Below, piece by piece: positions 101 through 49,234 of a DNA stretch of 61,597 nt (positions are counted from its first letter, which is position 1; each line of letters begins with the position of its first letter). This stretch comes from an uncultured Candidatus Saccharibacteria bacterium (GTDB taxonomy: Bacteria; Patescibacteriota; Minisyncoccia; Phycocordibacterales; PALSA-1337), in NCBI GenBank assembly GCA_964450345.1, contig CAYVEL010000002.1, forward strand, positions 1 to 61,597, in the 5' to 3' direction. A model generated the notes under the pieces. That model saw nothing but the letters and a program-made list of their open reading frames with translations, ran no database searches and was not told the DNA's origin. Position numbers and translations under genes: made by a program.

Positions 101-109
101 GAAAAAATT

Positions 110-143
110 AAAATCGCTTACAAATTAATTCGTAAGCGATTTT
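110..143. terminator. bidirectional terminator-like hairpin
   Basis: Perfect 12-bp inverted repeat AAAATCGCTTAC (110-121) / GTAAGCGATTTT (132-143) with an A-run 5' and a T-run 3'. It lies just 3' of the minus-strand ORF 165-476. Confidence 0.5.
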
Positions 144-164
144 AATTAGATCATCATCCAAACT

Positions 165-4086: not shown

Positions 4087-4431
4087 ATGGCAAGAGTAAA
4101 GAAAGGATTAAATGCTTTAAAGACAAGAAGAAATATACTTAGACAGGCTAAGGGTTTCAGATTTGGAAGAAGCAACAAAGAAAGAATGGCACATGATGCA
4201 TTAATGCATGCCGGTGCTTATGCTTTCGCTCACAGAAGAGATAAGAAGGGTGATATGAGAAGATTATGGAACGTTAAGATCAATGCTGGTCTTCGTCCAT
4301 TAGGAAAGACTTACAGTAAATTCATCGGTGCTCTAAAGAAACAGAACATCGAAATCGACAGAAAGATTATGGCAGACCTAGCAGAAAACAATCCAGAATC
4401 ATTCACACGTTTCGTCTCACAAGTTAAATAA
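4087..4431 (+). CDS. rplT: 50S ribosomal protein L20
   Basis: 114 aa: MARVKKGLNALKTRRNILRQAKGFRFGRSN. Canonical position after rpmI. Confidence 0.95.
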   Translation: MARVKKGLNALKTRRNILRQAKGFRFGRSNKERMAHDALMHAGAYAFAHRRDKKGDMRRLWNVKINAGLRPLGKTYSKFIGALKKQNIEIDRKIMADLAENNPESFTRFVSQVK

Positions 4432-4462
4432 ATTAAACAGGAGTAGAATAGGATAGAATAAT

Positions 4463-4510
4463 AAAACCGCCTTTTTAGAGACTTACAATCGTCTCAAAAA
4501 AGGCGGTTTT
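4463..4510 (+). repeat. two-tier hairpin, family copy 1 (invariant apical 19-mer at 4477-4495)
   Basis: Basal stem AAAACCGCCTTTTT / AAAAAGGCGGTTTT around AGAGACTTACAATCGTCTC. It lies between the convergent rplT and the beta-CASP gene and is terminator-like in both directions. Confidence 0.8.
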
Positions 4511-4511
4511 A

Positions 4512-5879
4512 TTATTCTAGATTATATTCTACTCCCCATTCTGGGTACTTCGCCTTACCACTTCCTAAACTATCATTTATTCTTTGAGTTAAGAATAGAG
4601 ATGCCTTAGGCTCACCCATCACCACGAAAGCACATTTTAAAGCAGACGAGCTCTTCTCTACGAAATCCAAAAGATGATCAGAGTCTTTATGAGCTGAATA
4701 GCCAGGAATATTCTCTATCTTAGCTCTAATAGGAACTTCACGTCCGCTAATAGTTATTTTTTTATGTCCCTCCAAAATATTTCTACCAGTAGAGCCAAGT
4801 GACTGATAACCTACGAAAAGAATAGTATTCTTAGGATCCGGCAGAAGTTCCATCTCGTGACGAATAATTCTTCCTCCTACAGACATACCTGAACCTGCGA
4901 TAATAATCTTTGGTGAAGGTTTATTCTCTATACCCTTAGACTCTAAAGTATCGTCTGTATATTGAAGTCTAGGGAAAGCGAATATATCATCTCCACCCTT
5001 AATCTTAATCTGAGTAGCATCATTAAAATCTTCGATGTAATTTCTATAGACTTCAGTAATTTTAATAGCTAAAGGTGAATCTACGAAAACTGGAATAGGT
5101 CTGATATCCCCCCTCTCTACGAAATCATTTATTTCAGAAAGTAATACCTGCGTTCTCTCTAGAGAAAAAGACGGGATAAGTAGAGTTCCCCCACGATTTA
5201 TATTATCCTTAATAACTTCGAGTAATTTCTGACTTCTAAGTTCTTTAGGCTCATGATTACGATCACCATAAACACTTTCCATTACAATATAATTAGTACC
5301 GTCAATGTATTCTGTATCCTTTAGTAGAGTAGATGGTGAATTACCTAAGTCACCGGTAAATGTAATAGTCTTATCACCTACAGTAAACATCATCATAGAA
5401 GAACCTAGGATATGTCCTGAATCTTTTAGATACAGAGAAAAGTCTCCGAAATCAGTTTTAGTATGATAGTGAATAGTATTCCACATTGAGAAAGCCTTAT
5501 TAATGTCATTCTCATCATATAGAATAGGCCTGCCCGTATTCTCTGCTTCCCTTTTTAAGAGTCCTACAGCATCATTTAATATATGAAAAGCTAATTCTTT
5601 TGTTTCAGGATTAGAATAAATCTTTCCATTAAAACCATCTCTAACTAATTTAGGTATTTTACCAACATGATCTAAATGAGCATGAGTAACGAATAAATAA
5701 TCCATTTCACTTGGATTGTATGGAAAAGGACTCCAGTTTAGTTTTTCTGAATCTTTATCACCCTGTAATAGACCGCAATCTACAAGCGCCTTTATTTCCC
5801 CACCGCTACTCTTAGGAATTTTAAGAAGGAAGTTCGCACCCGTAACCTTACCGACACCACCGTAAAAAGTGACTTTCAT
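4512..5879 (-). CDS. MBL-fold beta-CASP ribonuclease (RNase J/CPSF-like)
   Basis: 455 aa. HxHxDH motif THAHLDHVG. N-terminus is KVTFYGGVGKVTGANFLL...VDCGLLQG. Length and C-terminal SAHKD motif are typical of beta-CASP RNA-metabolising hydrolases. Confidence 0.75.
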   Translation of the reverse strand: MKVTFYGGVGKVTGANFLLKIPKSSGGEIKALVDCGLLQGDKDSEKLNWSPFPYNPSEMDYLFVTHAHLDHVGKIPKLVRDGFNGKIYSNPETKELAFHILNDAVGLLKREAENTGRPILYDENDINKAFSMWNTIHYHTKTDFGDFSLYLKDSGHILGSSMMMFTVGDKTITFTGDLGNSPSTLLKDTEYIDGTNYIVMESVYGDRNHEPKELRSQKLLEVIKDNINRGGTLLIPSFSLERTQVLLSEINDFVERGDIRPIPVFVDSPLAIKITEVYRNYIEDFNDATQIKIKGGDDIFAFPRLQYTDDTLESKGIENKPSPKIIIAGSGMSVGGRIIRHEMELLPDPKNTILFVGYQSLGSTGRNILEGHKKITISGREVPIRAKIENIPGYSAHKDSDHLLDFVEKSSSALKCAFVVMGEPKASLFLTQRINDSLGSGKAKYPEWGVEYNLE

Positions 5880-6699: not shown

Positions 6700-8436
6700 A
6701 TGAATATCAAAAAAATACTTAAAAGTAGAGAGGTCCTATATGCAATATTTTTCTTATGCATATTTACCCTATCTTTCTTAACTATTGTCTCTAACTTTAA
6801 AGACGCTATAGTCGATCGCAATTTCCATAACTACGATGAAATTAACAATGGCACCGTAACGTCTAACCTTACAAGACAGATATTCCCTCCGATGATAAGA
6901 ATAAATCCTCTAGCAGAGAAACAGGGTTCTTGGCAGGAAGGACCATATTGGCAACACATTCCACCACTTTACATGTATGCACCTCTTCCCTTTATAAGCT
7001 TACTAAATGATGGAGTTCCTAATCCCGCAGTAATAAGAATAGCCTATATAACAATACTATTTTTAAGCTTTGTTCTATTTATACTATCAATATTCTATAT
7101 AGAAAGAAGCCTTCTCTCTATTTTTACAGCGACTGTTTCAGCCATAATACTAATATCGACTGAGTTCACTCAGCAATTAATGCTGGGATATCTTTTTAAT
7201 AACTCTGACATAGTCCTATTCGCCAGTATAATGCTCAGTTTCTTATCTATAAATCTATATCTAAAAGAAACTAAAGAAAAAAGATTAAATTATTCTACAA
7301 AAAAAATAATATTACTCTCACTATTAGTTACACTACCGATCGTAGTTAAAACAGTTTTAGGTGCTATCCCCCTCGCGATATTCCTAATATTAATCCTTAA
7401 TGACCATAGAACTTTTAAGAATCGTAAATTTATTTATGCGATCATAACTTCATTTATATTACTAGTTAGTGCTTACTTGCCACTATACATAAGCTCACCA
7501 GATACCTTTATAAATGAGATACTTACACCACTAAACCATGTTACTGGATATAATGAGCGCCCTGCAAAGCCGTGGTATTCATATTTAACAAATATAATCC
7601 CTGACAAATATTTAGGAAGTCTAACAATACCTTTTTATGCAGGCTTTATACTATGTTCATTCTTTATTTATAGAATAAATATTCCAAGAAAAACCAAGAA
7701 TTTATTAATAATATCTAATATCTGGTTCATCTGGAATCTAATAGCGATATCAGCAACCACAATTAAAATTCCTAATTTCATTTTCCAATCTTTTATACTC
7801 TCAGTATTCTTTGTGATATATAGCATTCTCTGTATTGTAAAAATCTACTTTGATTATTCTAAAGAACAAAATACTTCATTAATTCACAAAATAAACGATC
7901 TATTTAACAGCTTTATAAATTCCTCAGCATTTAGAACAGCTGTCATCGGAGTTTTTGTTATAACAATACTATTTTTCACCACTACAAGTAGAAATATACT
8001 AGCAAGCATTAATGATCCTATCGTAATAGATTCTATGAGTAGTCGTTACAGACAGTTCGCTGAATCATTGAGAGACAAGGGTATATCGTCTAAAGATTTA
8101 GTACTATTGTACGCAACAGATGTTGATTGTAATCACTTAAAACTCGGCATAATATTCAATACAGGAGCAGAATCAGAAAGTTTTAGTAAACTAAAGTATA
8201 TTCCGAATTTATCTAATGAATATCTAAAATCCAAATATAAAAATGTTTATTTGGTTATTAAAAACGAGAAAAATAAAAAAGAATTGAATATCCCCCACTC
8301 TTCCGAAGAAATGGGTATATTTGAATTACTAAAAATTGATAATAAAAATATATCAGAGACTTTCGTCTCTGATATAAATAGTTATATTAATAAATTAGAT
8401 TACACTATAGAACCCTGCAGTTTAATACAGATTTAA
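6700..8436 (+). CDS. polytopic GT-C-type glycosyltransferase-like membrane protein (ArnT/PMT-like)
   Basis: 578 aa with at least 10 hydrophobic helices. The first loop has a YDE motif and WQHIPPLYMY (an HPPL-like signature of GT39/GT83 enzymes). A soluble C-terminal domain follows. Confidence 0.5.
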   Translation: MNIKKILKSREVLYAIFFLCIFTLSFLTIVSNFKDAIVDRNFHNYDEINNGTVTSNLTRQIFPPMIRINPLAEKQGSWQEGPYWQHIPPLYMYAPLPFISLLNDGVPNPAVIRIAYITILFLSFVLFILSIFYIERSLLSIFTATVSAIILISTEFTQQLMLGYLFNNSDIVLFASIMLSFLSINLYLKETKEKRLNYSTKKIILLSLLVTLPIVVKTVLGAIPLAIFLILILNDHRTFKNRKFIYAIITSFILLVSAYLPLYISSPDTFINEILTPLNHVTGYNERPAKPWYSYLTNIIPDKYLGSLTIPFYAGFILCSFFIYRINIPRKTKNLLIISNIWFIWNLIAISATTIKIPNFIFQSFILSVFFVIYSILCIVKIYFDYSKEQNTSLIHKINDLFNSFINSSAFRTAVIGVFVITILFFTTTSRNILASINDPIVIDSMSSRYRQFAESLRDKGISSKDLVLLYATDVDCNHLKLGIIFNTGAESESFSKLKYIPNLSNEYLKSKYKNVYLVIKNEKNKKELNIPHSSEEMGIFELLKIDNKNISETFVSDINSYINKLDYTIEPCSLIQI

Positions 8437-10344: not shown

Positions 10345-11568
10345 TTATTTATTTATTTTTCTAATTAATGAACTGATTAATATTTTCTCAGATATATCCT
10401 CTTCTGTGTTACCAAAACTAGCTATCGCCTGTTCTAGTATATTTGTAATCTTTGACTTAACCTCATCCTTAGAAAAAGAACCGAGCTGTTCACCCTTAAG
10501 CAAATCACTAAAACACTTCTCAAGCTTTGAAAATTGACCATCTTCATTTAATTTAATTCCCATGATGGCTTTATTCATAGCTTCAACAACGGCATTATCA
10601 ACACTTGTATTAATACTCTTCTCAAATTCCTCAACACTAGCATCATCAGTAAATAGTTCACCCCACTTACCAGAATTATTCACTTCTTTAAATTTATTTA
10701 GTTTTTCTGAGGCTTCTACAGTTCTACGTACAAGGTTACCAGCATTATTACCTGGAGCATTAGAATCAATAAGTGTATTAATAGAAGCTCTAATCTTAGT
10801 TACAAGTACAGTATTCATACCCATTTCCTCTATTATTTTTCCAGTTAAACCAACCCTAATACCATCTAAAGCAGCCTTAGATTCAGCTATTAATCTCTCT
10901 TGTTCTTCAATTTTTCCAGGTATTTTCTTAAAGTTCTCTATCTGTTCATTTATTAAATCTAATTGCTTCTTAATATCTTCAGGTTTGAAATCACGACCAT
11001 GAAGCTTTATCATCTCCCACTTTGCATCTTCAATATCTTTCTTTTCTTTGGTTTTTCCTGAAAAGAAAGTACCTATAAATCCCGGAGTTTCCATAGAAGC
11101 GAGAGCGTACTTCTCTCTTCTTGCTTCCATGTAAGCAATTTTTTCATTCGCTTTCTCACCTGAAGCTTTCAGTTTAGCGAATTCTGCTTCAGCTTTAGCA
11201 ATCTGTTCTGGTAATTCTTTAAAAGTCTTTATTTGTTCCGCCAACTCTAAAACTCTTTCTGGAGATTCCATTGATAAATCAGTAACATATTTCTCTATAT
11301 TACTAAGATCTTTGTCGCTAAGTTTAAAACCAAAATCTTTAGAGACTTCCTCCTTTATTATGGTTCTAATTCCTTCTACTACCCTTTTATTCTCTTTAAA
11401 TACTTTAAATTTTAATTCAAGTTCAGAATCTTCCATTTCAACAGGATCTGTATCACCCTTAAAATTAGTTAGAAACTTTAAAAAACCTCTATCATCTAAA
11501 GCTTTCGATCTATCAAAAGCATCTGTTTTACCACCTTCGACTTTTTGATCTTTAATTTCTTCAGCCAT
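10345..11568 (-). CDS. hypothetical coiled-coil protein
   Basis: 407 aa, Glu/Lys-rich with heptad-like stretches. It occupies the slot after map where infA-rpmJ-rpsM usually follow. Confidence 0.5.
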   Translation of the reverse strand: MAEEIKDQKVEGGKTDAFDRSKALDDRGFLKFLTNFKGDTDPVEMEDSELELKFKVFKENKRVVEGIRTIIKEEVSKDFGFKLSDKDLSNIEKYVTDLSMESPERVLELAEQIKTFKELPEQIAKAEAEFAKLKASGEKANEKIAYMEARREKYALASMETPGFIGTFFSGKTKEKKDIEDAKWEMIKLHGRDFKPEDIKKQLDLINEQIENFKKIPGKIEEQERLIAESKAALDGIRVGLTGKIIEEMGMNTVLVTKIRASINTLIDSNAPGNNAGNLVRRTVEASEKLNKFKEVNNSGKWGELFTDDASVEEFEKSINTSVDNAVVEAMNKAIMGIKLNEDGQFSKLEKCFSDLLKGEQLGSFSKDEVKSKITNILEQAIASFGNTEEDISEKILISSLIRKINK

Positions 11569-12380: not shown

Positions 12381-12974
12381 TTATATCTTTAGTTTTTCTA
12401 TGATTTCCTTATGGATTTCATTGGTATTTCTCTCACCATTAATCTCTATAAAGGTATAATCACTATTATTTCTATAGAAGTCAATAGTCTTCATTACTTC
12501 CTCACCGAACCAAGATAACCTACGCTTAATGTCAGCTGTATTATCATCCATTCTTCCTCTCTCAAGCAATCTAGAAGTAGCCCATGTATCACTAACATTT
12601 AAGAAAATAACCACAGGTCTTTTCATTCCAAAAAATGGGAACATTGAATCTAATACCTTTGCTTCATGAGATAATCTCGGAGAACCATCTATTAACATAT
12701 GATCTTTACCGTTATAGTTCTCAGCGATTAGATTAGTCCACATTAAAATAGACAGAAATTCTGGTTCTAATCCTCCCACATCATAAACCTGCTTTGATAA
12801 CTTCTTAGTATAAGAATCACCATTAATAAATCTGCGAAATTCTGCCCCACTCTGAACATAAAATACCCCCATATCTGGAGTCTTTGTTTTTAAATATTGC
12901 GTTAATAGCTCTGACTGAGTACCCTTACCACAGCCTGATTTACCTATTAATATAAAAGATAATCTTTCATTCAT
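12381..12974 (-). CDS. adk: adenylate kinase
   Basis: P-loop FILIGKSGCGKGTQ, LIDGSPRL, RGRMDDN. The start is set at the ATG at 12974 (M37 of the track ORF) because the longer ORF runs through hairpin copy 2. Confidence 0.85.
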   Translation of the reverse strand: MNERLSFILIGKSGCGKGTQSELLTQYLKTKTPDMGVFYVQSGAEFRRFINGDSYTKKLSKQVYDVGGLEPEFLSILMWTNLIAENYNGKDHMLIDGSPRLSHEAKVLDSMFPFFGMKRPVVIFLNVSDTWATSRLLERGRMDDNTADIKRRLSWFGEEVMKTIDFYRNNSDYTFIEINGERNTNEIHKEIIEKLKI

Positions 12975-12997
12975 GGGTGAATTATAACAAAAAACAG

Positions 12998-13058
12998 AAA
13001 ACATTGCCCCGTTTTTTCGAGACGATTGTAAGTCTCTGAAAAAACGGGGCAATGTTTT
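12998..13058 (-). repeat. two-tier hairpin, family copy 2 (core inverted; 19-mer complement at 13019-13037)
   Basis: 20-bp basal stem AAAACATTGCCCCGTTTTTT / AAAAAACGGGGCAATGTTTT around GAGACGATTGTAAGTCTCT, which is the reverse complement of the family core. Confidence 0.8.
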
Positions 13059-13092
13059 CTTATTTTGTAAATTCATTAGCAAAAAGGGAAAA

Positions 13093-13148
13093 TTAAAACC
13101 CCTCTTTTCGAGAGACTTACAATCGTCTCAAGAAAAGAGGGGTTTTAA
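13093..13148 (+). repeat. two-tier hairpin, family copy 3 (19-mer at 13111-13129)
   Basis: 16-bp basal stem TTAAAACCCCTCTTTT / AAAAGAGGGGTTTTAA around CGAGAGACTTACAATCGTCTCAAG. It lies 34 nt from copy 2, in the secY-adk spacer. Confidence 0.8.
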
Positions 13149-13157
13149 TTTTTCTGT

Positions 13158-14435
13158 TTAATATTCTCTCATTGAAACCTGAGCATCAATCTTTTTAACA
13201 AGATCAAGTACTACAGATACCACGATGAGTAATGATGTTCCACCAATAGCGAATGTACTATCTCCTGTATATCCTTTGAAGATAAGAGGAAGAATAGCTA
13301 CAGCACCTAGGAATAGAGCACCTACTAGAGTAATTCTAGTTACTATTTTTTCGAAGAATACCATGGTCTGTTCGCCAGGACGAATACCTGAAACGAAAGC
13401 ACCATTTTTCTGAAGATTCTCAGACATGTTCTTTGGATCGAAAGTAATAGCTGTATAGAAGTAAGTAAATAGTACTACTAGTACGAAATATATTACTCCA
13501 TATACCCACTGATTACTGAACCATGACATACCTGTTGAAGCTATGTCAGCAACTGATGCATTAGAACTTCTTGAAAGGAAAGATAAAATCATTTGTGGGA
13601 ACAATAGAATTGAGAGCGCAAAAATAATTGGTATTACTCCCGCCTGATTTAGTCTTAGAGGAATGTATGTTTGTACACCTCCGATAACTCTTTCTCCCCT
13701 AACCTGTCTTGAGTAAGTCACAGGAACAGATCTCTCTGCTTCTGTTACAAGAACCACGAAGAATGTGATAAGAACCGCACCGACAATCATCATAACCAAA
13801 GGAATAATGACTGAAGGATCGTCTACCGCCTTCTGTATTTCTTGAATCATCTTTGTAGGAAGATTGGCTACTATACCAGCGAAGATTATAAGTGAAGTAC
13901 CGTTTCCAATACCGAACTCAGTAATCAATTCACCGATCCACATAAGTAGAATAGAACCTCCTGTAATGATTAGGACATTAGTAATTAAAGACAATCCGTC
14001 CAAACTACCAATAACCTGCTGTGACTGAAGAAGCTTGATAAAGCCGAAAGACTGAATCATAGCTAGTGGGACGGTAAGCATTCTAGAATACTGAGAAAGC
14101 TTAGCTCTACCTGCCTCACCATCTTCCTGATAGGAAACTTTTAATGAAGGTATTATCATCATTAAAACCTGAATGATAATCGATGCTGTAATATATGGAC
14201 CAACACCGAGCATCACAATGGATAGGTTAGCCAAACCACCACCTGAGAGAATATTGAAGAGACCTAGGAATTGATTTCCTTCAAAAAGTCTATCTAGAGC
14301 GAACGAATCCACTCCTGGAATAGGAATTGCTGCTAGCAATCTGAAGACTGCGAGACCAATTACTACAAACAGAACTCTTTTCATAATAGCCTTATCTTTC
14401 AAAGCCATTAGAAGTCTGCTGAAAATATTACTCAT
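13158..14435 (-). CDS. secY: preprotein translocase subunit SecY
   Basis: 425 aa with 10 TM helices. Motifs: IPIPGVD, LGVGPYITASII and GGTSLLIVV. Position after rplO. Confidence 0.95.
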   Translation of the reverse strand: MSNIFSRLLMALKDKAIMKRVLFVVIGLAVFRLLAAIPIPGVDSFALDRLFEGNQFLGLFNILSGGGLANLSIVMLGVGPYITASIIIQVLMMIIPSLKVSYQEDGEAGRAKLSQYSRMLTVPLAMIQSFGFIKLLQSQQVIGSLDGLSLITNVLIITGGSILLMWIGELITEFGIGNGTSLIIFAGIVANLPTKMIQEIQKAVDDPSVIIPLVMMIVGAVLITFFVVLVTEAERSVPVTYSRQVRGERVIGGVQTYIPLRLNQAGVIPIIFALSILLFPQMILSFLSRSSNASVADIASTGMSWFSNQWVYGVIYFVLVVLFTYFYTAITFDPKNMSENLQKNGAFVSGIRPGEQTMVFFEKIVTRITLVGALFLGAVAILPLIFKGYTGDSTFAIGGTSLLIVVSVVLDLVKKIDAQVSMREY

Positions 14436-14443
14436 ATTATTTG

Positions 14444-14884
14444 CTACTTAGTAGCGATTACCTTACCACCTGCTTTTTCGATCTTTGTTTTAGCCTCGGC
14501 TGAAAGCTTACAATTCTCGATGTTTAGAGCTTTAGTGATATCACCTGAGCCTAGTATCTTAACGATTGGAGTCTTTCCTGAAGTAGTAGTGATAAAGCCC
14601 TTCTCTAGAAGAACCTTAGGACTTACTGTTTCGCCTTTATTGAAAGCGATTTCAAGAGTAGCTACGTTAATTACAACGTTGTCAGGAATGAATGACTTAA
14701 AGGCATAACCACGAAGCTTTGGAAGCTTCTTAATAATGTCTCTAACCTCTGGTCTCTTCTTGTGTCCGGCACGAGCATTCTGACCCTTTGTACCACGGCC
14801 TGAAGTCTTTCCGCGCTTTCCACCACGACCTACGAGCATTACTGGCTTGTTCTTTGTTCTTCTTTTTAATTGATGAAGCTGCAT
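14444..14884 (-). CDS. rplO: 50S ribosomal protein L15
   Basis: 146 aa: VGRGGKRGKTSGRGTKGQNARAG. It starts 4 nt after the rpsE stop. Confidence 0.9.
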   Translation of the reverse strand: MQLHQLKRRTKNKPVMLVGRGGKRGKTSGRGTKGQNARAGHKKRPEVRDIIKKLPKLRGYAFKSFIPDNVVINVATLEIAFNKGETVSPKVLLEKGFITTTSGKTPIVKILGSGDITKALNIENCKLSAEAKTKIEKAGGKVIATK

Positions 14885-14888
14885 GTTT

Positions 14889-15605
14889 TTACTTTTTAGC
14901 TTCCTTTACTTCAACTTTTGCCTCCTTTGGCTCTTTATTCGCAACGACCTTAGCGACTTTGATAAAGTTTTGTGTTGGAAGTTTCTTTAGAACCAAGATA
15001 GCAGCGCGAGCGATGTTAATCTTGTTCTTACTACCTGATAGAATCTTTGCATTGATATCTTTCAATCCTGCAAGTTCAAGTACATTTCTTACTGCTGAAC
15101 CAGCAATAAGACCTCTACCCTTTGCAGGCTGCATTGTAACTGTAGCGCTACAATACTTTGCTGTTACTTCGTGAGGAATAGACATCTGAGCTGTGTGAGC
15201 AACCTTGATCATATGTTTCTTAGCATCTCTTGTAGCCTTATCAATAGCCATTGAGGTATCGATAGACTTACCTAGACCAAAACCTACTCTACCCTTTCTG
15301 TCTCCTGCTACTACAGCAACTGAGAAAGCTAGTCTTCTACCTCCTGAGGTAACTCTCGTAACTCTTCTCATTAAGATTACCTTAGAATCAAATTCTGGCT
15401 TTACTCTTTCCTTACCATCTCTACCTGGTCTTCTTGATCCACCTTTTCTAGGACCACCCTGACTTCCTCCCTTTCCATCCTTTGAGAATGGTCTTGGTGA
15501 AAATCCTGGCTTGAAGCCTGGCTTTGAAGCAGTAGAAGTAGCTGCACCAGTGTTAGCTGGCTGTGCCTGAACTGCGTCTTTCTTTACTTCTGCGTTATTA
15601 GTCAT
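14889..15605 (-). CDS. rpsE: 30S ribosomal protein S5 with an N-terminal low-complexity extension of about 70 aa
   Basis: The core RRVTRVTSGGRRLAFSVAVVAGDRKGRVGFGLGKS is preceded by a Pro/Gly/Lys/Ser-rich segment. Confidence 0.9.
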   Translation of the reverse strand: MTNNAEVKKDAVQAQPANTGAATSTASKPGFKPGFSPRPFSKDGKGGSQGGPRKGGSRRPGRDGKERVKPEFDSKVILMRRVTRVTSGGRRLAFSVAVVAGDRKGRVGFGLGKSIDTSMAIDKATRDAKKHMIKVAHTAQMSIPHEVTAKYCSATVTMQPAKGRGLIAGSAVRNVLELAGLKDINAKILSGSKNKINIARAAILVLKKLPTQNFIKVAKVVANKEPKEAKVEVKEAKK

Positions 15606-15610
15606 ATTTT

Positions 15611-15958
15611 TTAGAACTTTAGACCAGCTTCGCGAGCAGAATCTGCAAGAAGTTTTACCTTTCCTGCGTATAGATATCCACTTCTGTCGAATACGACTTT
15701 AGAAATGCCTAGATCTTTTGCAATCTTAGCAATTCCTGCACCGACCTCCTTAGCCTGATCTGTCTTCTTCTTAGCCTTTAGGCCTACTGAAGAGAAACTA
15801 GCTAAAGTATTTCTTGCATCGTCGTCTACTAACTGGGCGTAAATAAATTTATTTGATTTGAATATAGTTAAACGTGGTGTTTCCTTTGTTCCGGAAATCT
15901 TAGCACGCACTCTATTCTTTCTTCTTTCGAAGTTTGTGATGTTTACTAGTCTTGACAT
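15611..15958 (-). CDS. rplR: 50S ribosomal protein L18
   Basis: RRKNRVRAKISGTKETPRLTIFKSNKFIYAQLVDD. spc-operon position. Confidence 0.9.
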   Translation of the reverse strand: MSRLVNITNFERRKNRVRAKISGTKETPRLTIFKSNKFIYAQLVDDDARNTLASFSSVGLKAKKKTDQAKEVGAGIAKIAKDLGISKVVFDRSGYLYAGKVKLLADSAREAGLKF

Positions 15959-15967
15959 AGATTTTTA

Positions 15968-16501
15968 TTATGCGGCTTTCTTACCCTGCTTTCTTCTAAT
16001 ATTCTCACCTTCATATCTGATACCCTTACCCTTATATGGTTCAGGCTTCTTGATAGCTTTGATCTTGTTAGCAAATGAGCCAACTAAATCCTTATCAATA
16101 CCAGAAATAGTGATGGTGGCTTTCTCAGCAACGACTTTAAGTCCTGCTGGAATTTCGACCTTTACTGTATGTGATAGACCTACAGACAAAGTGATGTCCT
16201 TAGGCTTCACGTCAAATTTGTAACCAATACCTTCAATAACCAACTTCTTCTCGAAAGGCTTGTGAACACCTTCTAGCATATTTCTTAAATGTGCTGCGTA
16301 TGTTCCCCATAGAGCCAGAGCTTCAAGAGTCTCTTCAACTGGAGTAAGAATTACTTCCTTTCCCTCCACCTTAATACTTACTGATGGTTTGAAAGATTTC
16401 TTTAATTCTCCTAGTGGACCCTTAACAACTAAAAAGCCGTCCTTAACAGAGACTTCGGTTTTTTCAGGTATTTGGATTGGTTTCTTTGCGATTCTTGACA
16501 T
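15968..16501 (-). CDS. rplF: 50S ribosomal protein L6
   Basis: MSRIAKKPIQIP...KGKGIRYEGE. spc-operon position. Confidence 0.95.
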   Translation of the reverse strand: MSRIAKKPIQIPEKTEVSVKDGFLVVKGPLGELKKSFKPSVSIKVEGKEVILTPVEETLEALALWGTYAAHLRNMLEGVHKPFEKKLVIEGIGYKFDVKPKDITLSVGLSHTVKVEIPAGLKVVAEKATITISGIDKDLVGSFANKIKAIKKPEPYKGKGIRYEGENIRRKQGKKAA

Positions 16502-16513
16502 ATGTTTTAGAAA

Positions 16514-16909
16514 TTACCAAATCTTGAATAATACCTCACCTCCGACATTCTGCTTTCTAGCATCTCCGTCGGTTAACACACCCTTTGGAGTAGATAAGAT
16601 AACGTTTCCAAAACCGTTTTTGAATACGTTAATATCCTTTGACTTCTGATAAAGTCTTCTTGAAAGGTGTGAAATTCTTTTAACTCCTCTAATACGAGGC
16701 TGACCGTCTACATAAAGGATCTCTATTACTAGAGTCTTTTCTGCAGGTGTATTTCCCTTAACTTCTACTGACTTAATGTAGCCAGATTTTAGAAGTACGT
16801 CTGCGATTGAATTACAAACTTTTGAGTAGGGGAAAGAAATAGCTGGAAGATTTGCATCACTAGCATTCTTAATCTTCACAATTAAATCTGCGATATGATC
16901 TCTTACCAT
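16514..16909 (-). CDS. rpsH: 30S ribosomal protein S8
   Basis: DHIADLIVKIKNA...ILSTPKGVLTD. It overlaps the rpsN stop by 7 nt. Confidence 0.95.
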   Translation of the reverse strand: MVRDHIADLIVKIKNASDANLPAISFPYSKVCNSIADVLLKSGYIKSVEVKGNTPAEKTLVIEILYVDGQPRIRGVKRISHLSRRLYQKSKDINVFKNGFGNVILSTPKGVLTDGDARKQNVGGEVLFKIW

Positions 16910-17088
16910 GATGATTTTTTAATGCCTGGAATTACTCCCTGGTTTGCGAACTCACGGAAGCATATTCTGCAAATATCAAAGTCACGCATATATCCATGCT
17001 TACGACCACAGCGGAAGCAACGTCTTACGACGCGCGATGCGAACTTTGGCTTTTTCTTTGCCCTAGCAATTACTGATGTTTTTGCCAT
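16903..17088 (-). CDS. rpsN: 30S ribosomal protein S14 type Z (zinc-binding)
   Basis: 61 aa with a CxxC...CxxC pattern (RCFRCGRKHGYMRDFDICRICFRE). Confidence 0.9.
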   Translation of the reverse strand: MAKTSVIARAKKKPKFASRVVRRCFRCGRKHGYMRDFDICRICFREFANQGVIPGIKKSSW

Positions 17089-17232
17089 ATGAGCTAGATT
17101 TTAATAATTACGCACTTAATAACAAAAAGAGAATTGGTTAGCTATGGTACACGGATTCTACGGCGTTAAGCCATATTTTCCGCATTTCCTAAGCTTCCAA
17201 TTACTGTTTTGCGCTCTCTTTTTGACCTAACA

Positions 17233-17261
17233 AATATAACAGAATACCTTTAAATAATCAA
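17233..17261 (-). promoter_or_regulatory. candidate sigma70-type promoter for rpsN and downstream genes (TTGATT-17-TATATT)
   Basis: On the minus strand, the -35 TTGATT is the complement of 17256-17261 and the -10 TATATT is the complement of 17233-17238, with a 17-nt spacer. It leaves a leader of about 140 nt before the rpsN ATG. Confidence 0.4.
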
Positions 17262-17281
17262 GGTTTATATAGTTTTAGAAG

Positions 17282-17320
17282 TAAAAATTAAAGCCCCTCG
17301 TCTATCCAGACGAGGGGGCT
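17282..17320 (-). terminator. GC-rich intrinsic terminator of ORF 17341-17778
   Basis: GCCCCTCGTCT-ATCC-AGACGAGGGGGC stem-loop, followed by a T-run on the minus strand (complement of GTAAAAATTAA). Confidence 0.6.
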
Positions 17321-17340
17321 GAAAAACCAAACTAAAACTG

Positions 17341-17778
17341 TTAGCGTCTGTAATCGCGGGGACCAGGATTACCACGAGGCGAACCACCATGATCATTAAA
17401 CCTTACCGGCGGACGTCCATCTACATGCCTGACACCATGTTCACGCCAGTGAGAATTATGGCTACGCCAATAATGGAAACGTTCTACCCTCGCCCGATCA
17501 CAAGGAAGCCAGACACCCGCCGAGAAATAGACATAGGTTCCACCGGAAAATCCGATGCAATCATTATCTACCCAGTAATAAAAATCTGGTGGACCATAAG
17601 TTACCACCTGAACTGTTACTGGTGCTGGCGGAGGAAGAATGACCGGAGGAGGCGGTGGTGGTAATGGCTCGCTGTATACCACGGGATGATATGGTTCATA
17701 ATATCCATGAACAACACATCCAGAAGTAAACATAGACAACGAAGCCAAAGACAGAATACTGAAATGCACAATTTTCAT
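17341..17778 (-). CDS. putative lipoprotein, GC-rich orphan (Pro-rich linker, His/Arg/Trp-rich C-terminal region)
   Basis: Signal peptide plus lipobox MKIVHFSILSLASLSMFTSG|C (start at M13 of the track ORF). PPPPPPVILPPPAP linker. Line 17401-17460 has 32/60 GC. Confidence 0.5.
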   Translation of the reverse strand: MKIVHFSILSLASLSMFTSGCVVHGYYEPYHPVVYSEPLPPPPPPVILPPPAPVTVQVVTYGPPDFYYWVDNDCIGFSGGTYVYFSAGVWLPCDRARVERFHYWRSHNSHWREHGVRHVDGRPPVRFNDHGGSPRGNPGPRDYRR

Positions 17779-25400: not shown

Positions 25401-28400
25401 CTAAGGTTCCGGAGGTGTTGGAGGATTCGGATCGTGATTAGGATCAGTTGGCGTCTCTCCCCCCGAACCAGGATTAGTATTTACTGGATTAGTTGTTGTA
25501 GGTACAGATGGATAACTATGACCACCCGAACTGTCTGTGGTAGCACATACTTCTGTGCTTGTAGATACAGATCCATATAAGCTACTTGTAAGAACTACCG
25601 CACAGTATCTAGTGTTAGATGTTAATCCAGTCTGATGATACAACTGTGACATCGTTCCTCTAGTATATGATGCCTGTTCGAAAGTAGAAGACGCTCCTGT
25701 GATTAGATATTTGTATTCTGGATATGTCTGTACTAGAGAGTAACTGTTAACACCTAGATCTGAATTAGACCAGATATATACTAATTCTTTTGAAGAACGA
25801 GGATTAACAATTAATTCAGCTTTTTGGACTGAAGGAGGAACTGCCTTAATACATACAGTAGTACTTGTAGCTAATGCAGTAGTAGAGCTAGCCTTAGTAT
25901 ATGCACAGTATTCATCTGTGTAATTAAATGAAGTAAGGTCATATGAACGAGTAGAAGAACTTGTTATTAGTGTTCTAGATATTGGTTTTGTTTGAATTAG
26001 AGTAAATACTGGATTATCTGTGATTGTGCTATTCCATGAGAACTTTACTGAATCTGGAGTACTTGTAGCTGTAGTGATTACCATGGCTTTGTCACAATAT
26101 TCACCATTTAGTACATATCCTGCAGCACAGATATACTGTGATACTGTTCCTTTGATTACACTTTCTGGTACTAGAGTAGTTAAAGCTGGAATGGTACAGA
26201 TGGTTCCTGAGAGAGTACCGGATGAACAAGAGTATGAGACGGTTGAGGCTGTGGTGGTGGCTGGAACAGTAGTGGTCTTTGCAGGAAATAGACATACGTT
26301 ACCAGATATACTACTTCCTGTTGGACAGCTTGCACTCACAGCTACTGCGGCGTAACCGGCTTTACCAGGCACTCTACACCATGTTCCACTTAATGTTGCT
26401 CCATATCCACAACCATATACGATTGTAGGATTAACAGTATATGAAGGTGTAGTAGTTGAGTAGCCCGCGATATAACAGGTGTGATCTAATTTTAGTACTC
26501 CTGTAGTACAGGAATAAGCGGGAGTGGCATTTACAGTAGAAGTAGCAGTAACTATTTCAACATGCGCAGGTCTAACACAAGTATTGTCTGACTGTAGTGT
26601 GTAGTTAGTAGGACAAGAGTAAGAGAAAGGAGTAGCAGGAACTCTATAGCCATATGCACCGTGTCCTGTAACAGTAATCTTAATTGATGTATTAGCCCAT
26701 GGACTGTTTAAGGCACCAACGCTTAATACATATTCCCCATCTGGTACTTCTATCGGTACTGTGAATTCTAGATTCTTACCGTCTGCACTACTTAGATTAT
26801 CAATTGTATATTCTGTTGTACTTGTTTGTGTTTGTGCCTCTGCTGTAGATACGAGTGATATGAAGAAGTTGAATATTCTTACTATTAGATCCCATATCCA
26901 ATCGAAGAATGAAGCTACGCTAGCTAGTAGAGAACCATTATTGTTTGTAGTAGTGTTTAGACTTGTTTTTACTACTGGGACTAGTTTTACTGTGTTATCT
27001 GTCGGAGTAAAACCTGAACCTTTTATGTTAAACCTCAATACATCCGGTGAATTATTTACCGAGCCAGGAAGTGGAACAAAAGGATTTACTTCACTGATAG
27101 CTGGAGCAGGAGCTCTTGGTGGAATACCGTCTTTATTAGTGTCGAGCAACAAACATTCTGCCCAATGAGTCTTCGCATGTTCCTTATCAGTAGGCTCACC
27201 TAAAATTCCAGAAATTACATAACCACAAGAAATCACATTCAATCGCCAATCAAGAGTTCCAACAGAATTATTCATAAGACTTGTTGGACTTGCTCGATAA
27301 AAAGGATAACCTAAAGCAGTACCACCCATAGAACAACCTGAGGTTGTAGTAGCCTTATTTGAACCATACCAAAGATTGTTATATTTAAATGAAGCCGCTG
27401 GATCTGCTGTACAATTACGAAAAGGAATAACTTCTTCTTCCCCCTCATCTATTCCATAAACATTCTCATAAAGTTGGGTCCACACCTCCATCCACCTAGG
27501 AAGATCTAAAACGTACTCATCGTCTAAATGACCTATATAATGCGAAGATTCATGCGCAAAAACATACATTAAATTAGAACCTGTATTTTCAATTTTTGGT
27601 AAATTGATTAATGTAATATTTTTTGAAGCACGCAAAAATTGTCCATCATATGGAAGTCTGCTATCTTCAATAAAAACTACATACTCAAACGAATCATCTC
27701 CACAACTCGAAGAACTTCTTACGTATTCACCTATCCCGTTTGGATTATCAAAGAAATTATATTTATTCATCGATCCAAAATTCTGTGGCATATGATATAT
27801 ATCAATGTAAAACGAAAATTTATCAGAATACTTTTTATATGGATCTATACTCACAAACTTATTAATAGAATCATTTACTTTTTCAGAGAAAAACGACGAC
27901 TTTCTTGAGAGAGTGCTTGTTTGAAGAAAAACTATTTTCTTAGGTCCATTACCTGACAATTTAATACAATTACTAACAGACGCTATATTAGAAACATCAG
28001 AATATGTACCATCAGCAAATCTGGCTTTAACTTTATAATACTCGTGAGTTCCTTTTATCGGTATTGTACTATTATCATCTAAGTATGAAGTAATGGAACC
28101 GCTAGTTGTTGATCCTATTGCGACAAATTTACTTGGTATTGTAGATGTACCAAAAGCAAACCCAATGTCATATCCGACTGCCTGTGGCACAAAATCCCAA
28201 GACAGATCAACCTTACCCGGCTCATTAATTCTCATTTTAGCAGTAAGACCGGTCGGAGCAGATCTAACTGTATATCTAACTACATTACTGTAATTAGAGA
28301 GACCAGTCGGTAAAACAGCTGCTACACGGTATTCATATGTCTTTCCAGAAGCCAAACTAGAATCAGTATATGTTGTGGTATTTATTGGAAGAGATGCTAG

Positions 28401-29000
28401 CTGTGTAAAGCTTCCTCCCTCTACCCTGCGTTCGATTGTATATTCGTTTTCTGTAGTAAAATTGTCGTTCCATGAAAGACTGATTGTTTTAGAACTAGAA
28501 GTTGTTGCTAAAACAAGTTTAATATCATCAACAACTCTAATCATCGACGAATTAAACTTTCCCGAAACAGTTGGACAATTTTGTCTAAAAGTTCCTGGAC
28601 CTTTTATAACTTCTGGATAACCACCTGAACCCAATCTACGATCTAATGGATTTTCACAACCAAGCTGAACGGTACTAGTAGATGTAAGAGTTATGTATTG
28701 AATACAACCACCAGAAGACTGATATGGTTTATTTAATCCATCCAAAGAAACACACTGAGGACATGTTTTAGCTAATTCGGTTATATACGAATCCCAAGAA
28801 TCATAAAGAGGATATTGATCCATACCAGAAGTATTAGACATGGAACAATACTCTCCGTATCCCCCAGACCAACTAGATGCTGAAGTATATCCTATTACAG
28901 AAGCATTAACCTTATCTGTAAAACCGACGAAGATTACTACAAAAAACACAAAAACTATTATTTTGTGTATGAAGTATCCTGTTTTTATTTTATTTTTCAC
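25401..29000 (-). CDS. large secreted multidomain protein (FN3 repeats, M64-like zinc peptidase module, Cys-loop repeats, Pro-rich tail)
   Basis: 1199 aa. Signal-like N-terminus. FN3-like segments (LSWNDN...YEYRVAAV). HESSHYIGHLDDEY (27513-27554) resembles the HExxH...DEY motif of IgA-peptidase M64. Six C-x10-13-C repeats and a C-terminal PNPPTPPEP follow. Confidence 0.7.
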   Translation of the reverse strand: MKNKIKTGYFIHKIIVFVFFVVIFVGFTDKVNASVIGYTSASSWSGGYGEYCSMSNTSGMDQYPLYDSWDSYITELAKTCPQCVSLDGLNKPYQSSGGCIQYITLTSTSTVQLGCENPLDRRLGSGGYPEVIKGPGTFRQNCPTVSGKFNSSMIRVVDDIKLVLATTSSSKTISLSWNDNFTTENEYTIERRVEGGSFTQLASLPINTTTYTDSSLASGKTYEYRVAAVLPTGLSNYSNVVRYTVRSAPTGLTAKMRINEPGKVDLSWDFVPQAVGYDIGFAFGTSTIPSKFVAIGSTTSGSITSYLDDNSTIPIKGTHEYYKVKARFADGTYSDVSNIASVSNCIKLSGNGPKKIVFLQTSTLSRKSSFFSEKVNDSINKFVSIDPYKKYSDKFSFYIDIYHMPQNFGSMNKYNFFDNPNGIGEYVRSSSSCGDDSFEYVVFIEDSRLPYDGQFLRASKNITLINLPKIENTGSNLMYVFAHESSHYIGHLDDEYVLDLPRWMEVWTQLYENVYGIDEGEEEVIPFRNCTADPAASFKYNNLWYGSNKATTTSGCSMGGTALGYPFYRASPTSLMNNSVGTLDWRLNVISCGYVISGILGEPTDKEHAKTHWAECLLLDTNKDGIPPRAPAPAISEVNPFVPLPGSVNNSPDVLRFNIKGSGFTPTDNTVKLVPVVKTSLNTTTNNNGSLLASVASFFDWIWDLIVRIFNFFISLVSTAEAQTQTSTTEYTIDNLSSADGKNLEFTVPIEVPDGEYVLSVGALNSPWANTSIKITVTGHGAYGYRVPATPFSYSCPTNYTLQSDNTCVRPAHVEIVTATSTVNATPAYSCTTGVLKLDHTCYIAGYSTTTPSYTVNPTIVYGCGYGATLSGTWCRVPGKAGYAAVAVSASCPTGSSISGNVCLFPAKTTTVPATTTASTVSYSCSSGTLSGTICTIPALTTLVPESVIKGTVSQYICAAGYVLNGEYCDKAMVITTATSTPDSVKFSWNSTITDNPVFTLIQTKPISRTLITSSSTRSYDLTSFNYTDEYCAYTKASSTTALATSTTVCIKAVPPSVQKAELIVNPRSSKELVYIWSNSDLGVNSYSLVQTYPEYKYLITGASSTFEQASYTRGTMSQLYHQTGLTSNTRYCAVVLTSSLYGSVSTSTEVCATTDSSGGHSYPSVPTTTNPVNTNPGSGGETPTDPNHDPNPPTPPEP

Positions 29001-29576: not shown

Positions 29577-30530
29577 CTACGAAACACCGTTTTTAGCATG
29601 ACCCGCATTGTATTCCTCAACCACCTTTTCGATTATCCCCCGAACTTCGGGAGGAGTCAGCCTGCTACCAGTAGCACGAGGGCTACCACCGATAGTATCG
29701 CTACCTCCCCAATGATGATTAGGGTTTCTTTCAATCTCATCGAGTTTTTTCAAAACTTCTGGAAGTGGAAAAGGAATAAATATCGAACGCCGACCGACAG
29801 AATATGTAAATTTCCCGTCGGTCCGAGCCGTAACAGAAACAAAGGCATCAACACCATCGGAATACATTCCGAGACGAGCATTAAGCCCAATTTCTCGAAC
29901 CATAGACCAGCCGGTGTTGGTATTCATCACTTCATAATCCGTATCAAGAGGAATTTCTTCCCCACGACCAGCAACAGCCTGACTAATCCGTAAACAGCCA
30001 TCGCCGATAATCATTCGGAATTCACGCTCGTCACGCCGTTCAAGAGCACCATTTGTGCGTGCTATCTTGTAAGCTTGAAACAGCCAATTATTCTCGTGAA
30101 GCGCCGGCATATTCGCCGGATATCCATAAGAACCAGCCGTGGTATCGAGCATGTCTTCCACATTGATAATCCGATTAAGAATCGGGTTAATGATACTCTC
30201 AGTATGATGTGCATTAAGGAAAAGCCACACAGTTAAGGTGACGTCCTCATCACAATCATTCACAAAGAGATGCACTTCCTCCAAGCCGTGATTAAACGCT
30301 TTGAGAAGACCGCTCTTAATCAGAATACTCGCCTGTGCTGCGGTGCAACGTGTAGTGAGACGATCGCATCCTTCGTGATGGTTGATACATAGAATTCTCT
30401 TATCACCATCCCAACGAGGAGCACCAGACACATAGCCGTCTATGGCTATTGAGCCTTCTGGCGCGACTTTCAGAAACTCCTCCCAAGTAAGCGGAGGAGT
30501 ATTCGGTTCCACATGTAGGGTTATTTTCAT
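29577..30530 (-). CDS. hypothetical 317-aa protein, GC-rich orphan; weak DHH/DHHA1 (NrnA-like) motif order
   Basis: The start is set at M30 of the track ORF (SD GAAAGGATAT). Lines 29641-29700 and 30001-30060 have 35/60 and 31/60 GC. The motif order is INHHEGCD, FVNDCDED, LNAHH, DMLDTTAG, WGGSDTIGGSP, which is colinear with DHH motifs I-IV plus GGGH but with substituted ligands. Confidence 0.5.
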   Translation of the reverse strand: MKITLHVEPNTPPLTWEEFLKVAPEGSIAIDGYVSGAPRWDGDKRILCINHHEGCDRLTTRCTAAQASILIKSGLLKAFNHGLEEVHLFVNDCDEDVTLTVWLFLNAHHTESIINPILNRIINVEDMLDTTAGSYGYPANMPALHENNWLFQAYKIARTNGALERRDEREFRMIIGDGCLRISQAVAGRGEEIPLDTDYEVMNTNTGWSMVREIGLNARLGMYSDGVDAFVSVTARTDGKFTYSVGRRSIFIPFPLPEVLKKLDEIERNPNHHWGGSDTIGGSPRATGSRLTPPEVRGIIEKVVEEYNAGHAKNGVS

Positions 30531-30754
30531 ATATCCTTTCAGTAACAATCGCAGGCCTACCTGCAATTTTTTGGTTTCGAAGTTTTTTGGTTTTTTGCGA
30601 AATTTCAAAAATCTCATCTCAAGTTTTCACTCTTTTAAGTCTAGATGTAGGACTTGCCCCTATGGGCGAACTGCGAAATACAATACCACAAAACAGACCC
30701 AATGTAAATACTAAAAATAATCCAAAAAATTAGGGTTTCTGCTATTATTACCTC

Positions 30755-33344: not shown

Positions 33345-33373
33345 ATTATAGGTGAACGAGCGTTCACCTGCAA
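33345..33373 (-). promoter_or_regulatory. promoter TTGCAG-17-TATAAT of the small-ORF/lexA unit
   Basis: On the minus strand, the -35 is the complement of 33368-33373 and the -10 TATAAT is the complement of 33345-33350. The 17-nt spacer is the SOS box itself. Confidence 0.55.
33350..33369 (-). promoter_or_regulatory. LexA operator (Cheo-box type GAAC-N4-GTTC)
   Basis: Perfect palindrome AGGTGAAC-GAGC-GTTCACCT. The core GAACGAGCGTTC fits the Gram-positive SOS-box pattern GAAC-RNRY-GTTC. It lies between the -35 and -10 of the lexA unit. Confidence 0.65.
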
Positions 33374-39349: not shown

Positions 39350-39385
39350 ATAATTAAATATAAGGGTAGCATACCTTACAGAAAA

Positions 39386-39414
39386 CAAAAAAGAGCCTTT
39401 CGGGCTCTTTTTTG
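39386..39414 (-). terminator. intrinsic terminator after rplB
   Basis: AAAAAAGAGCC-loop-GGCTCTTTTTT with a T-run on the minus strand, 16 nt after the rplB stop. Confidence 0.65.
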
Positions 39415-44732: not shown

Positions 44733-44846
44733 ATTTTATAAACAAAACATTTAAAGACCGTATTCGGTCTTCTATTAATAAGAGGTGGTTATGGAATAAT
44801 TATACCCTCGATGAAATATATAACAAGTCTTAGTTATTCACATAAC

Positions 44847-44881
44847 AAAACGCATATCTCAATGTAAAAGATATGCGTTTT
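44847..44881 (-). terminator. hairpin terminator after fusA
   Basis: AAAACGCATATCT / AGATATGCGTTTT 13-bp inverted repeat, 24 nt after the fusA stop. A second small hairpin AAGACCG-TATT-CGGTCTT lies at 44754-44771. Confidence 0.5.
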
Positions 44882-44904
44882 GTGTTTTAAACTATTTTTA
44901 ACGA

Positions 44905-47052: not shown

Positions 47053-47162
47053 ATAATATTAAAATTGCTTGTTAGCGAATGTGTTAAAGATATTACTATA
47101 GTTACGCCAAAAAGTCTATATTTTTATATACTCATTTAACGAATTTTGTTCTAATAGAAAAA

Positions 47163-47220
47163 TTAAAAGACCTCCTTTTCGAGAGACTTACAATCGTCTC
47201 AAGAAAAGGAGGTCTTTTAA
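47163..47220 (+). repeat. two-tier hairpin, family copy 4 (19-mer at 47182-47200)
   Basis: 17-bp basal stem TTAAAAGACCTCCTTTT / AAAAGGAGGTCTTTTAA around CGAGAGACTTACAATCGTCTCAAG, in the rpsG-fusA spacer. Confidence 0.8.
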
Positions 47221-47227
47221 TTTTAGT

Positions 47228-49179: not shown

Positions 49180-49192
49180 TCTAAATTTAAAT

Positions 49193-49229
49193 ACAACAAA
49201 AAACCGGCCAGATGCCGGTTTTTTGTTGT
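49193..49229. terminator. bidirectional terminator
   Basis: ACAACAAAAAACCGGC-loop-GCCGGTTTTTTGTTGT between the convergent rpmB and the MBL-domain gene. Confidence 0.65.
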
Positions 49230-49234
49230 ATTTA

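Follow-up and report, generated by a model that had tools for sequence, protein, structure and literature searches.

Why should four hairpins scattered along a single stretch of bacterial chromosome end in exactly the same loop when the stems beneath them differ? The question arises from a chromosome segment of 61,597 nt (hereafter the window; 36% GC) from aquatic and wastewater metagenomes, in which an earlier note, made from the letters alone, had picked out four palindromes that share one 19-mer. Going by the names of the relatives of its SecY, L20 and S7 proteins, the host is a member of the Paceibacterota (Patescibacteria/CPR). CPR bacteria have small, streamlined genomes whose regulatory DNA has hardly been studied. 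A phage origin for the window was considered and rejected, given that megablast returned no match in a phage collection and that the window is bacterial chromosome.

An invariant apex on covarying stems

The 19-mer AGAGACTTACAATCGTCTC is, as the earlier note had claimed, present in exactly four copies in the window, compared with 0.01 expected by chance, and a scan of the window allowing up to three mismatches recovered none beyond these four. Each core forms the apex of a near-perfect hairpin of about 64-69 nt, with 26-28 Watson-Crick pairs and folding energies between -37 and -45 kcal/mol for the spans 4454-4519, 12994-13062, 13089-13152 and 47159-47224 (copies #1 to #4; Table 1 gives slightly wider limits for #3 and #4). 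Slightly longer spans, taken on either strand, fold at -38 to -46 kcal/mol, with z-scores of -9.5 to -13.8 relative to shuffled sequences. Across the four copies, none of the 109 pairs is G·U, an argument that holds solely for these core-defined copies, as it would be circular for plain hairpins, which were found by a Watson-Crick scan.

Read from 5' to 3', each unit comprises an A-tract, a variable GC clamp, a T-run, the apex, an A-run, the second clamp arm and a T-tract. The T-run (4-6 nt) leads via 0-3 bridging bases and an unpaired A to the apical stem-loop, which consists of GAGAC, the loop TTACAATC and GTCTC just as originally described, after which the same parts follow in mirror image. 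The further claim that each apex is carried on a completely different, self-complementary basal stem stands in part: the clamps do differ and all are perfectly complementary to their partner arms, yet copies #3 and #4 have in common an outer flank (AAAATTAAAA/TTTTAATTTT) and an identical 32-nt inner part, such that the clamp is the sole difference between them (two substitutions and one indel per arm, every one mirrored). When the four copies are aligned, 14 of the 27 consensus pairs show a two-sided change in at least one copy. Outer-flank sequence (AAAAYTAAAA, ACAAAACTAAAA) is common to copies #3 and #4, to a further copy, C, and to an allele of copy #3 on contig L015. No direct repeats that could represent target-site duplications surround any of the four copies, and GTAG/CTAC, which was looked for at the hairpin foot, is absent in all four.

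The description of every copy as intergenic also needs amendment. All copies sit where genes or tRNAs end, on the 3' side, but in copy #1 the outermost AU pairs extend into the final codons of the beta-CASP gene, the stop codon of which occupies 4512-4514. The distance from stop codon to hairpin foot ranges from 2 to 22 nt. Copies #3 and #2 form an inverted pair inside the 183 nt that separate secY from adk (12975-13157), and the core of copy #3 is antisense to the secY transcript.

In all four copies the clamp stem is followed by a TTTT (A/T-rich) tail on both strands, which is the layout of an intrinsic terminator, and the suitability of the flanking runs for termination in either direction, proposed from the outset, is borne out by the A-tract and T-tract at every copy. 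Promoter-like sites are found for adk and fusA (Table 1), the latter also being present in the relatives L034 and L036/L037. Because adk and fusA possess such sites of their own, the secY and rpsG transcripts seem genuinely to end at the hairpins, and the position of the extended -10, together with the lack of a Shine-Dalgarno sequence, suggests that the adk mRNA is probably leaderless in this CPR bacterium. Judged from this arrangement of sequence, the hairpins most likely halt transcription in both directions at the ends of ribosomal-protein and tRNA genes. A TACAAT within the loop was also considered as a possible promoter; copy #2 alone directs it towards a gene and alone has a -35, a weak one, and the resemblance was judged incidental.

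Two additional hairpins in the window recall the family. The two-tier hairpin between the HIT and pgk genes, which has a different apex, is probably a diverged relative, and the short hairpin downstream of a pilin gene is possibly a remote one, with a covariance-model score of just 16.6 bits (model R1, described below). The window also contains plain terminators, three of which are perfect palindromes with arms of 15-21 nt that extend into AT-rich flanks, far exceeding the length needed for termination; the one at 106-147 shares a AATTAAAA flank with copies #3 and #4. Separately, the str/S10 ribosomal cluster is broken by non-ribosomal genes (37538-39388 and 43782-44732, both on the minus strand), each bounded by plain terminators. 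Between fusA and tuf lies a gene for a PG-binding-domain protein, and rplB is followed by one for an ABC ATPase.

Table 1 Hairpins and promoter-like sites of the window, further copies of the family, and the corresponding junctions in relatives (percentages are protein identities)
Feature	Coordinates	Orientation	Structure	Context
Copy #1	4454-4519 (19-mer 4477-4495)	core +	66 nt, 28 pairs, -38.7 kcal/mol; clamp CCGCC/GGCGG	between convergent rplT (4087-4431, +) and beta-CASP/RNase J-like gene (4512-5879, -)
Copy #2	12994-13062 (19-mer 13019-13037)	core -	69 nt, 28 pairs, -44.6 kcal/mol; clamp CATTGCCCCG/CGGGGCAATG, bulged A	just upstream of adk
Copy #3	13086-13155 (19-mer 13111-13129)	core +	clamp CCCCTC/GAGGGG	starts 2 nt past secY stop codon
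Copy #4	47157-47226 (19-mer 47182-47200)	core +	clamp GACCTCC/GGAGGTC	between rpsG (47228-47698, -) and fusA (44905-47052, -)
Related two-tier hairpin	55134-55203		A5-GCGCCA-T5CTAA-AGAC-AATAATTT-GTCT-TTAGA5-TGGCGC-T5	between convergent HIT and pgk genes
Short hairpin	8349-8376	-	TATATCAGAGAC-GAAA-GTCTCTGATATA; same apical stem, tetraloop, no GC clamp	downstream of pilin gene
Plain terminator	106-147		perfect palindrome	
Plain terminator	44845-44883		perfect palindrome	
Plain terminator	49188-49234		perfect palindrome	
Promoter-like site, adk	12972-12989	-	perfect extended -10 TGTTATAAT, 6 nt, then ATG; no Shine-Dalgarno sequence	
Promoter-like site, fusA	47090-47118	-	TAGACT-17-TAATAT	downstream of copy #4
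Copy C			clamp GGCTG/CAGCC; loop TTATAATC (one change)	1 base past a tRNA gene (...GGTTCGAGTCC...CACCA)
Copy A				adjoins 3' end of a second tRNA gene on the opposite strand
Copies B and D			clamps resemble clamp of #1	
secY-adk, L009 (SecY 76%)			no hairpin	adk begins 22 nt past secY
secY-adk, L012 and L013/L014 (SecY 69-70%)				unrelated genes inserted
rplT/beta-CASP, L032/L033 (L20 84%)			plain bidirectional terminator, 4-nt loop	
rpsG-fusA, L036/L037 (S7 83%)			plain terminator AAAAAGACCTT-AAAAT-AAGGTCTTTTTT	
rpsG-fusA, L034/L035 (S7 93%)	L034:835-941		different two-tier hairpin, -61.6 kcal/mol	

Family size and the orthologous junctions of relatives

Contig flanks and sequencing depth point to at least 8 loci in the source genome, a number that supports the earlier view of a true family as opposed to independent terminators. 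In the four runs holding this genome (X1-X4), the summed depth of contigs over the core is approximately 12-14 times the flanking depth, and at least 4 additional loci are defined by distinct flanks on depth-matched contigs (copies A to D, Table 1). Copies are located past rplT, secY, rpsG and two tRNA genes, all of which are 3' ends of transcription units. Consequently, taking the window copies together with the contexts of copies C and A, every locus of known context sits behind a translation gene or a tRNA.

Beyond this genome, searches for the core returned little. An exact 18-mer search of 185,579 species genomes yielded six singletons, compared with about 17 expected by chance, the same search of JGI metagenomes yielded two, and a degenerate core gave eleven singletons in IMG/VR; in no case was the match carried on a basal hairpin. 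Rfam 15 returned no matches at its gathering thresholds, and below them, at permissive E-values, just generic long-hairpin noise. The suggestion that the 19-mer be sought in related genomes thus ends in its absence from representative genomes and from relatives at the orthologous junctions, and on these searches the hairpin family is small and private to one CPR lineage.

At the junctions corresponding to those of copies #1 to #4, relatives carry no hairpin, unrelated genes, or hairpins of other kinds (Table 1). Presence and absence are directly visible here, and, with relatives as distant as these (70-84% protein identity), either loss or gain may account for the difference. The plain rpsG-fusA terminator of L036/L037 has a stem that resembles the clamp of copy #4. 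The hairpin at the same junction in L034 has 27-nt perfect arms by palindrome scan, 31 pairs in its fold and a branched apex of 53 nt, and its shoulders (TTTTAGACA/TGTCTAAAA) resemble those of the window elements. As a side observation, the secY-adk junction behaves as an insertion hotspot of the clade, as it spans 22 nt in L009, holds two hairpins in the window, and accommodates a SurA-like gene in L012 (2571-3442) and an ORF6N-domain gene with other hairpins in L013/L014 (L013:4954-5793).

A covariance model (R1) built from the four window copies scores these at 77-92 bits and their reverse strands at 47-57 bits. The related hairpin at 55134-55203 receives 57 bits, the L034 hairpin 44, and plain terminators no more than 23. 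From these scores, the two-tier design is limited to the close clade of the window and the 19-mer to its own lineage.

Diverged alleles retain the apex

Two diverged alleles bear on whether the identical apices merely reflect recent copying; runs X9-X12 yielded no further ones, and no alleles of the 55139 hairpin came to light. Contig L015, from another sample (SRR10083311), is 99.56% identical to the window over 13111-17628, and its coding DNA differs at only 12 of 4467 nt (0.27%). By contrast, 8 substitutions and 2 indels are crowded into the approximately 50 nt that begin at the secY stop codon and extend into copy #3. The loop of this allele is intact (GATTGTAA, 8/8), and the apical stem GAGAC/GTCTC is replaced by GAAAC/GTTTC, both sides being altered (G-C to A-T). 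Additionally, an inserted C and an A-to-G change together create a new C-G pair, and the clamp has one change. Strain differences are likewise tightly clustered elsewhere, with eight third-codon-position changes in 70 nt of pgk (L030 versus window 55567-55636) and five changes in 10 nt of rplF (L015 versus window 16127-16136). Such clustering indicates short recombination imports or multibase template-switch events, and for this reason the L015 allele is probably a tract imported from a more diverged lineage.

The second allele comes from a low-depth relative in run X5 that carries copy #1. The 31 nt leading up to the hairpin carry 10 substitutions and four indels relative to the window, and the left arm of the clamp carries two changes. 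Two more differences, unplaced and close to the contig ends, may be the mirrored counterparts in the right arm. None of the 12 placed differences falls within 4470 to ~4497, bearing in mind that differences less than ~12 nt from the contig end (4510) were not placed, so that the 34-nt centre (which extends to ~4503) is covered to ~4497. The stretch that separates hairpin #1 from the end of rplT (4432-4462) is itself hypervariable among strains, with 4 substitutions in the X4 strain, and the adjoining coding DNA and the apex of hairpin #1 are unchanged between those strains.

Retention of the apex in diverged alleles therefore points to constraint, and not merely to recent copying, and on these alignments the apex predates the lineages concerned and has been kept nearly constant. 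The earlier note's picture of stems that covary around a conserved core extends to the other copies and to the diverged alleles.

Origin and function of the family

Three explanations had been offered at the outset: recognition of the loop by a factor, a role in RNA processing or stability, and a REP/MITE-like palindrome. The evidence leans towards the last of these, in combination with a terminator function. Our preferred reading, which we consider about as apt to prove right as wrong, is that the hairpins are lineage-private REP/MITE-like palindromic units that act as strong bidirectional intrinsic terminators behind highly expressed genes. Such units would form a family of few copies, with at least 8 loci per genome, made up of near-perfect DNA palindromes of 60-75 nt that serve as putative bidirectional Rho-independent terminators (3'-end hairpins) of highly expressed translation and tRNA genes. 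The outer A-tract and T-tract would provide the U-tract for either direction, and the GC clamp would do the terminating work, with pairing as its sole requirement, leaving it free to covary. The inner T-run:A-run tier would carry the 19-nt apical stem-loop. The unit presumably spread by duplication, in the manner of REP/MITE-like non-autonomous DNA. Mobility would be read from its distribution, and is weakened by the low copy number, the absence of target duplications and the lack of any transposase, RAYT or integrase among the ~50 window ORFs.

Under this hypothesis, the arms may be held perfectly Watson-Crick by template switching of replication within the palindrome, combined with selection for hairpin stability, such that the clamp would drift through mirrored changes as the apex stays under constraint on both sequence and structure, perhaps because it nucleates folding or binds a factor. 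Single template-switching events are documented to create perfect stems and to maintain or repair them, introducing multibase compensatory changes (PMC8794818). The absence of G·U pairs and the mirrored multibase changes fit palindromy at the DNA level, to which selection for folding on both strands could contribute. Three further points weigh against the preferred reading. Mirrored neutral drift alone fails to account for differences between copies #3 and #4 that are confined to the clamp, an exactly conserved, asymmetric 8-nt loop exceeds the needs of a folding nucleus, and the likeness of the copy #4 basal stem to the plain L036/L037 terminator would better fit a module inserted into a resident terminator.

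This last point leads to the strongest alternative, which we regard as unlikely: only the inner part of ~30 nt (T-run, apex, A-run) is mobile, and it entered the loops of resident bidirectional terminators in either orientation, the stems of which supply the differing yet perfectly paired bases. Plain terminators (A-run, GC stem, 3-5-nt loop, GC stem, T-run) are indeed the norm in this genome and its relatives, and core orientation is mixed. At rpsG-fusA, the L036/L037 stem is close to that of copy #4 (AAAAGACCTCC...GGAGGTCTTTT), with a 5-nt loop in place of the 32-nt module, and the 53-nt apex of the L034 hairpin can be read as a different insert between similar shoulders. However, the outer flank beyond the clamp, common to copies #3, #4, C and the L015 allele, is not predicted by an inner-only unit. 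Moreover, the closer relative L034 lacks the clamp of copy #4, which is found in the more distant L036, and the L036 match may consequently be due to chance (~5 informative nt, p ~0.01 after three comparisons). For copies #1, #2 and #3, no site was seen that had the identical stem but was empty, and the module comes with neither a target duplication nor a candidate enzyme.

A more speculative proposal, which we would not expect to hold, is that the 19-nt apex is the recognition hairpin of a putative trans-acting enzyme (HUH/Y1-type or another hairpin-specific DNA enzyme) or hairpin-binding protein, which places or maintains the module in the terminator loops of highly transcribed genes. If so, the apex would co-evolve with its enzyme, and the sister-lineage shift from GAGAC/GTCTC to GAAAC/GTTTC would be a concerted change across all copies. 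This would amount to a new class of miniature element targeting terminator loops, in genomes thought to be nearly free of repeats. Searches of the ~50 window ORFs against Pfam revealed no transposase, integrase, RAYT, IS200/IS605 or other HUH enzyme, and the co-occurring RAYT or IS200/IS605-type transposase anticipated by the earlier note is thus not encoded in the window.

A conserved loop on covarying stems is also the classic signature of a structured RNA, and the apical stem-loop might be the site of a trans-acting RNA-binding protein or RNase (involved in processing, stability or antitermination) mounted on the terminators of translation operons. The two-sided changes, the compensatory apical-stem change of the L015 allele with its loop intact, and the restriction of known contexts to translation genes and tRNAs are all in keeping with such a function, and perfect stems of 22-28 bp would suit RNase III as substrates. 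We nonetheless consider this explanation doubtful. The loop is asymmetric, and it is transcribed as UUACAAUC in the rplT transcript, copy #2 and copy C, yet as GAUUGUAA in copies #3, #4 and A; given this mixed orientation of the apex relative to transcription, a single RNA-binding factor reading the loop cannot serve all copies, which weakens the idea of factor recognition at the RNA level. Furthermore, the lack of G·U pairs fits symmetry in DNA, no Rfam match exists, and the motif is missing from relatives that have the same operons. Should the apex turn out to be recognised by a protein, this would indicate a new, hairpin-specific factor of CPR bacteria.

A very improbable reading places the constraint on double-stranded DNA. 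GAGAC-N8-GTCTC could resemble the operator of a dimeric DNA-binding protein (a nucleoid, segregation or replication factor), or the core of a tyrosine-recombinase site with an 8-bp asymmetric spacer, its position in terminator apices being fortuitous. The copies are few, exactly conserved and indifferent to the direction of transcription, their inverted arms and asymmetric spacer recall lox/FRT-type cores, and AGAC-N8-GTCT occurs 7 times in the window against 0.9 expected. This excess, however, is due to the hairpin family itself. No recombinase or candidate binding protein is found among the window ORFs, the invariable placement on long palindromes is left unexplained, and recombination between the direct repeats #1, #3 and #4 would be lethal because they flank essential ribosomal operons. 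The possibility that GAGAC and GTCTC mark a Type IIS restriction-site signal was rejected, as these words occur 35 and 50 times compared with ~35 per word (a hand estimate from base composition), and so are neither avoided nor enriched. Finally, an assembly or adapter artefact, or a chance resemblance among independent terminators, has a negligible probability: source-run contigs do break inside the core, as is expected where a true repeat exceeds the word size of the assembly, but independent assemblies in at least 4 runs and on separate Logan contigs contain the same sequences (L028 is 100% identical across copy #1) and exclude an artefact, and the number of copies expected by chance is that given above.

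How, then, would REP/MITE-like terminator units of the kind we favour compare with known systems? REP sequences and REPINs, mobilised by RAYT transposases (Bertels & Rainey 2011), are short, lineage-private extragenic palindromes predicted to form hairpins in ssDNA or mRNA (PMC3116915). REPs conserve their stem and a 5' GTAG-type tetranucleotide, and are present in tens to hundreds of copies per genome alongside a single-copy RAYT (PMC3116915). Like the units described here, REPs lie between genes and in both orientations, often at 3' ends, and at times form inverted doublets, as #2/#3 do in the window. In contrast to REPs, about 8 or more copies were detected, with one such doublet, no GTAG signature and no RAYT among the ~50 window ORFs, and the pattern of conservation is inverted: the loop is invariant and the stem (clamp) variable. 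As bidirectional Rho-independent terminators, they have the usual GC-rich stem, upstream A-tract and downstream T-tract, and lie between convergent genes or after operons, a design also seen in the plain hairpins of the window. Ordinary terminators, however, have unrelated loops of 3-8 nt and stems of 5-15 bp, whereas these possess an extra AU tier, a shared 19-nt apex and stems of 26-28 bp.

Hairpin MITEs, such as the Correia/NEMIS elements of Neisseria, enterobacterial ERIC and pneumococcal RUP/BOX, are non-autonomous intergenic palindromes that fold in mRNA and can supply terminators or RNase III/E processing sites acting on neighbouring genes. They are at least 100-150 nt long, end in inverted repeats, are flanked by target-site duplications and have a parent IS that can be recognised. 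The family resembles them in comprising palindromic intergenic repeats, but each unit is a single palindrome with no target-site duplication, no IS is encoded in the window, and nothing similar was found in IMG/VR. In the DUS of Neisseria and USS of Haemophilus, a short genome-specific sequence recurs in terminator hairpins, forming the arms of the stem at a density of ~1/kb and in more than 1000 copies. The likeness here lies in a short sequence inside terminator hairpins, and the window encodes a ComEC competence channel (50737-52161); on the other hand, the shared part is loop and apex, with 4 copies in 61.6 kb and ~8 or more genome-wide. Template-switch (quasipalindrome) mutagenesis (Monttinen & Loytynoja 2022, PMC8794818) accounts for perfect arms, one-step mirrored multibase changes, the clustered differences between near-identical strains and a possible inversion of the loop, but it is a mutational process and not an element family, and leaves the identical apex across loci unexplained.

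The family is therefore best described as an unusual variant of the repeated-palindrome theme, and not as a new kind of system. Its interest lies in a mode of repeat evolution in which the loop is constant and the stem covaries freely, in a natural case for separating DNA-level template switching from RNA-level selection on hairpins, and in hairpins that interrupt two ribosomal operons, str and spc, which are tightly conserved otherwise. It would also offer an experimentally tractable case of a CPR genome building and copying strong terminators.

Two further features of the window deserve mention. A classical Gram-positive-type LexA box, GTGAACGCTCGTTCAC (GAAC-N4-GTTC, 33352-33367, minus strand), overlaps a TATAAT before an operon comprising an 84-aa gene plus a lexA-like (S24 peptidase) gene; as this box is not AGAC-N8-GTCT, the idea that the apex is a LexA operator was discarded. 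Four large ORFs, all on the minus strand (25401-29000, 57087-58547, 10345-11568 and 29577-30617; 1199, 486, 407 and 346 aa, respectively), have no Pfam match at E<=0.001 and are typical CPR unknowns, the 407-aa gene being syntenic with a 406-aa gene in L032.
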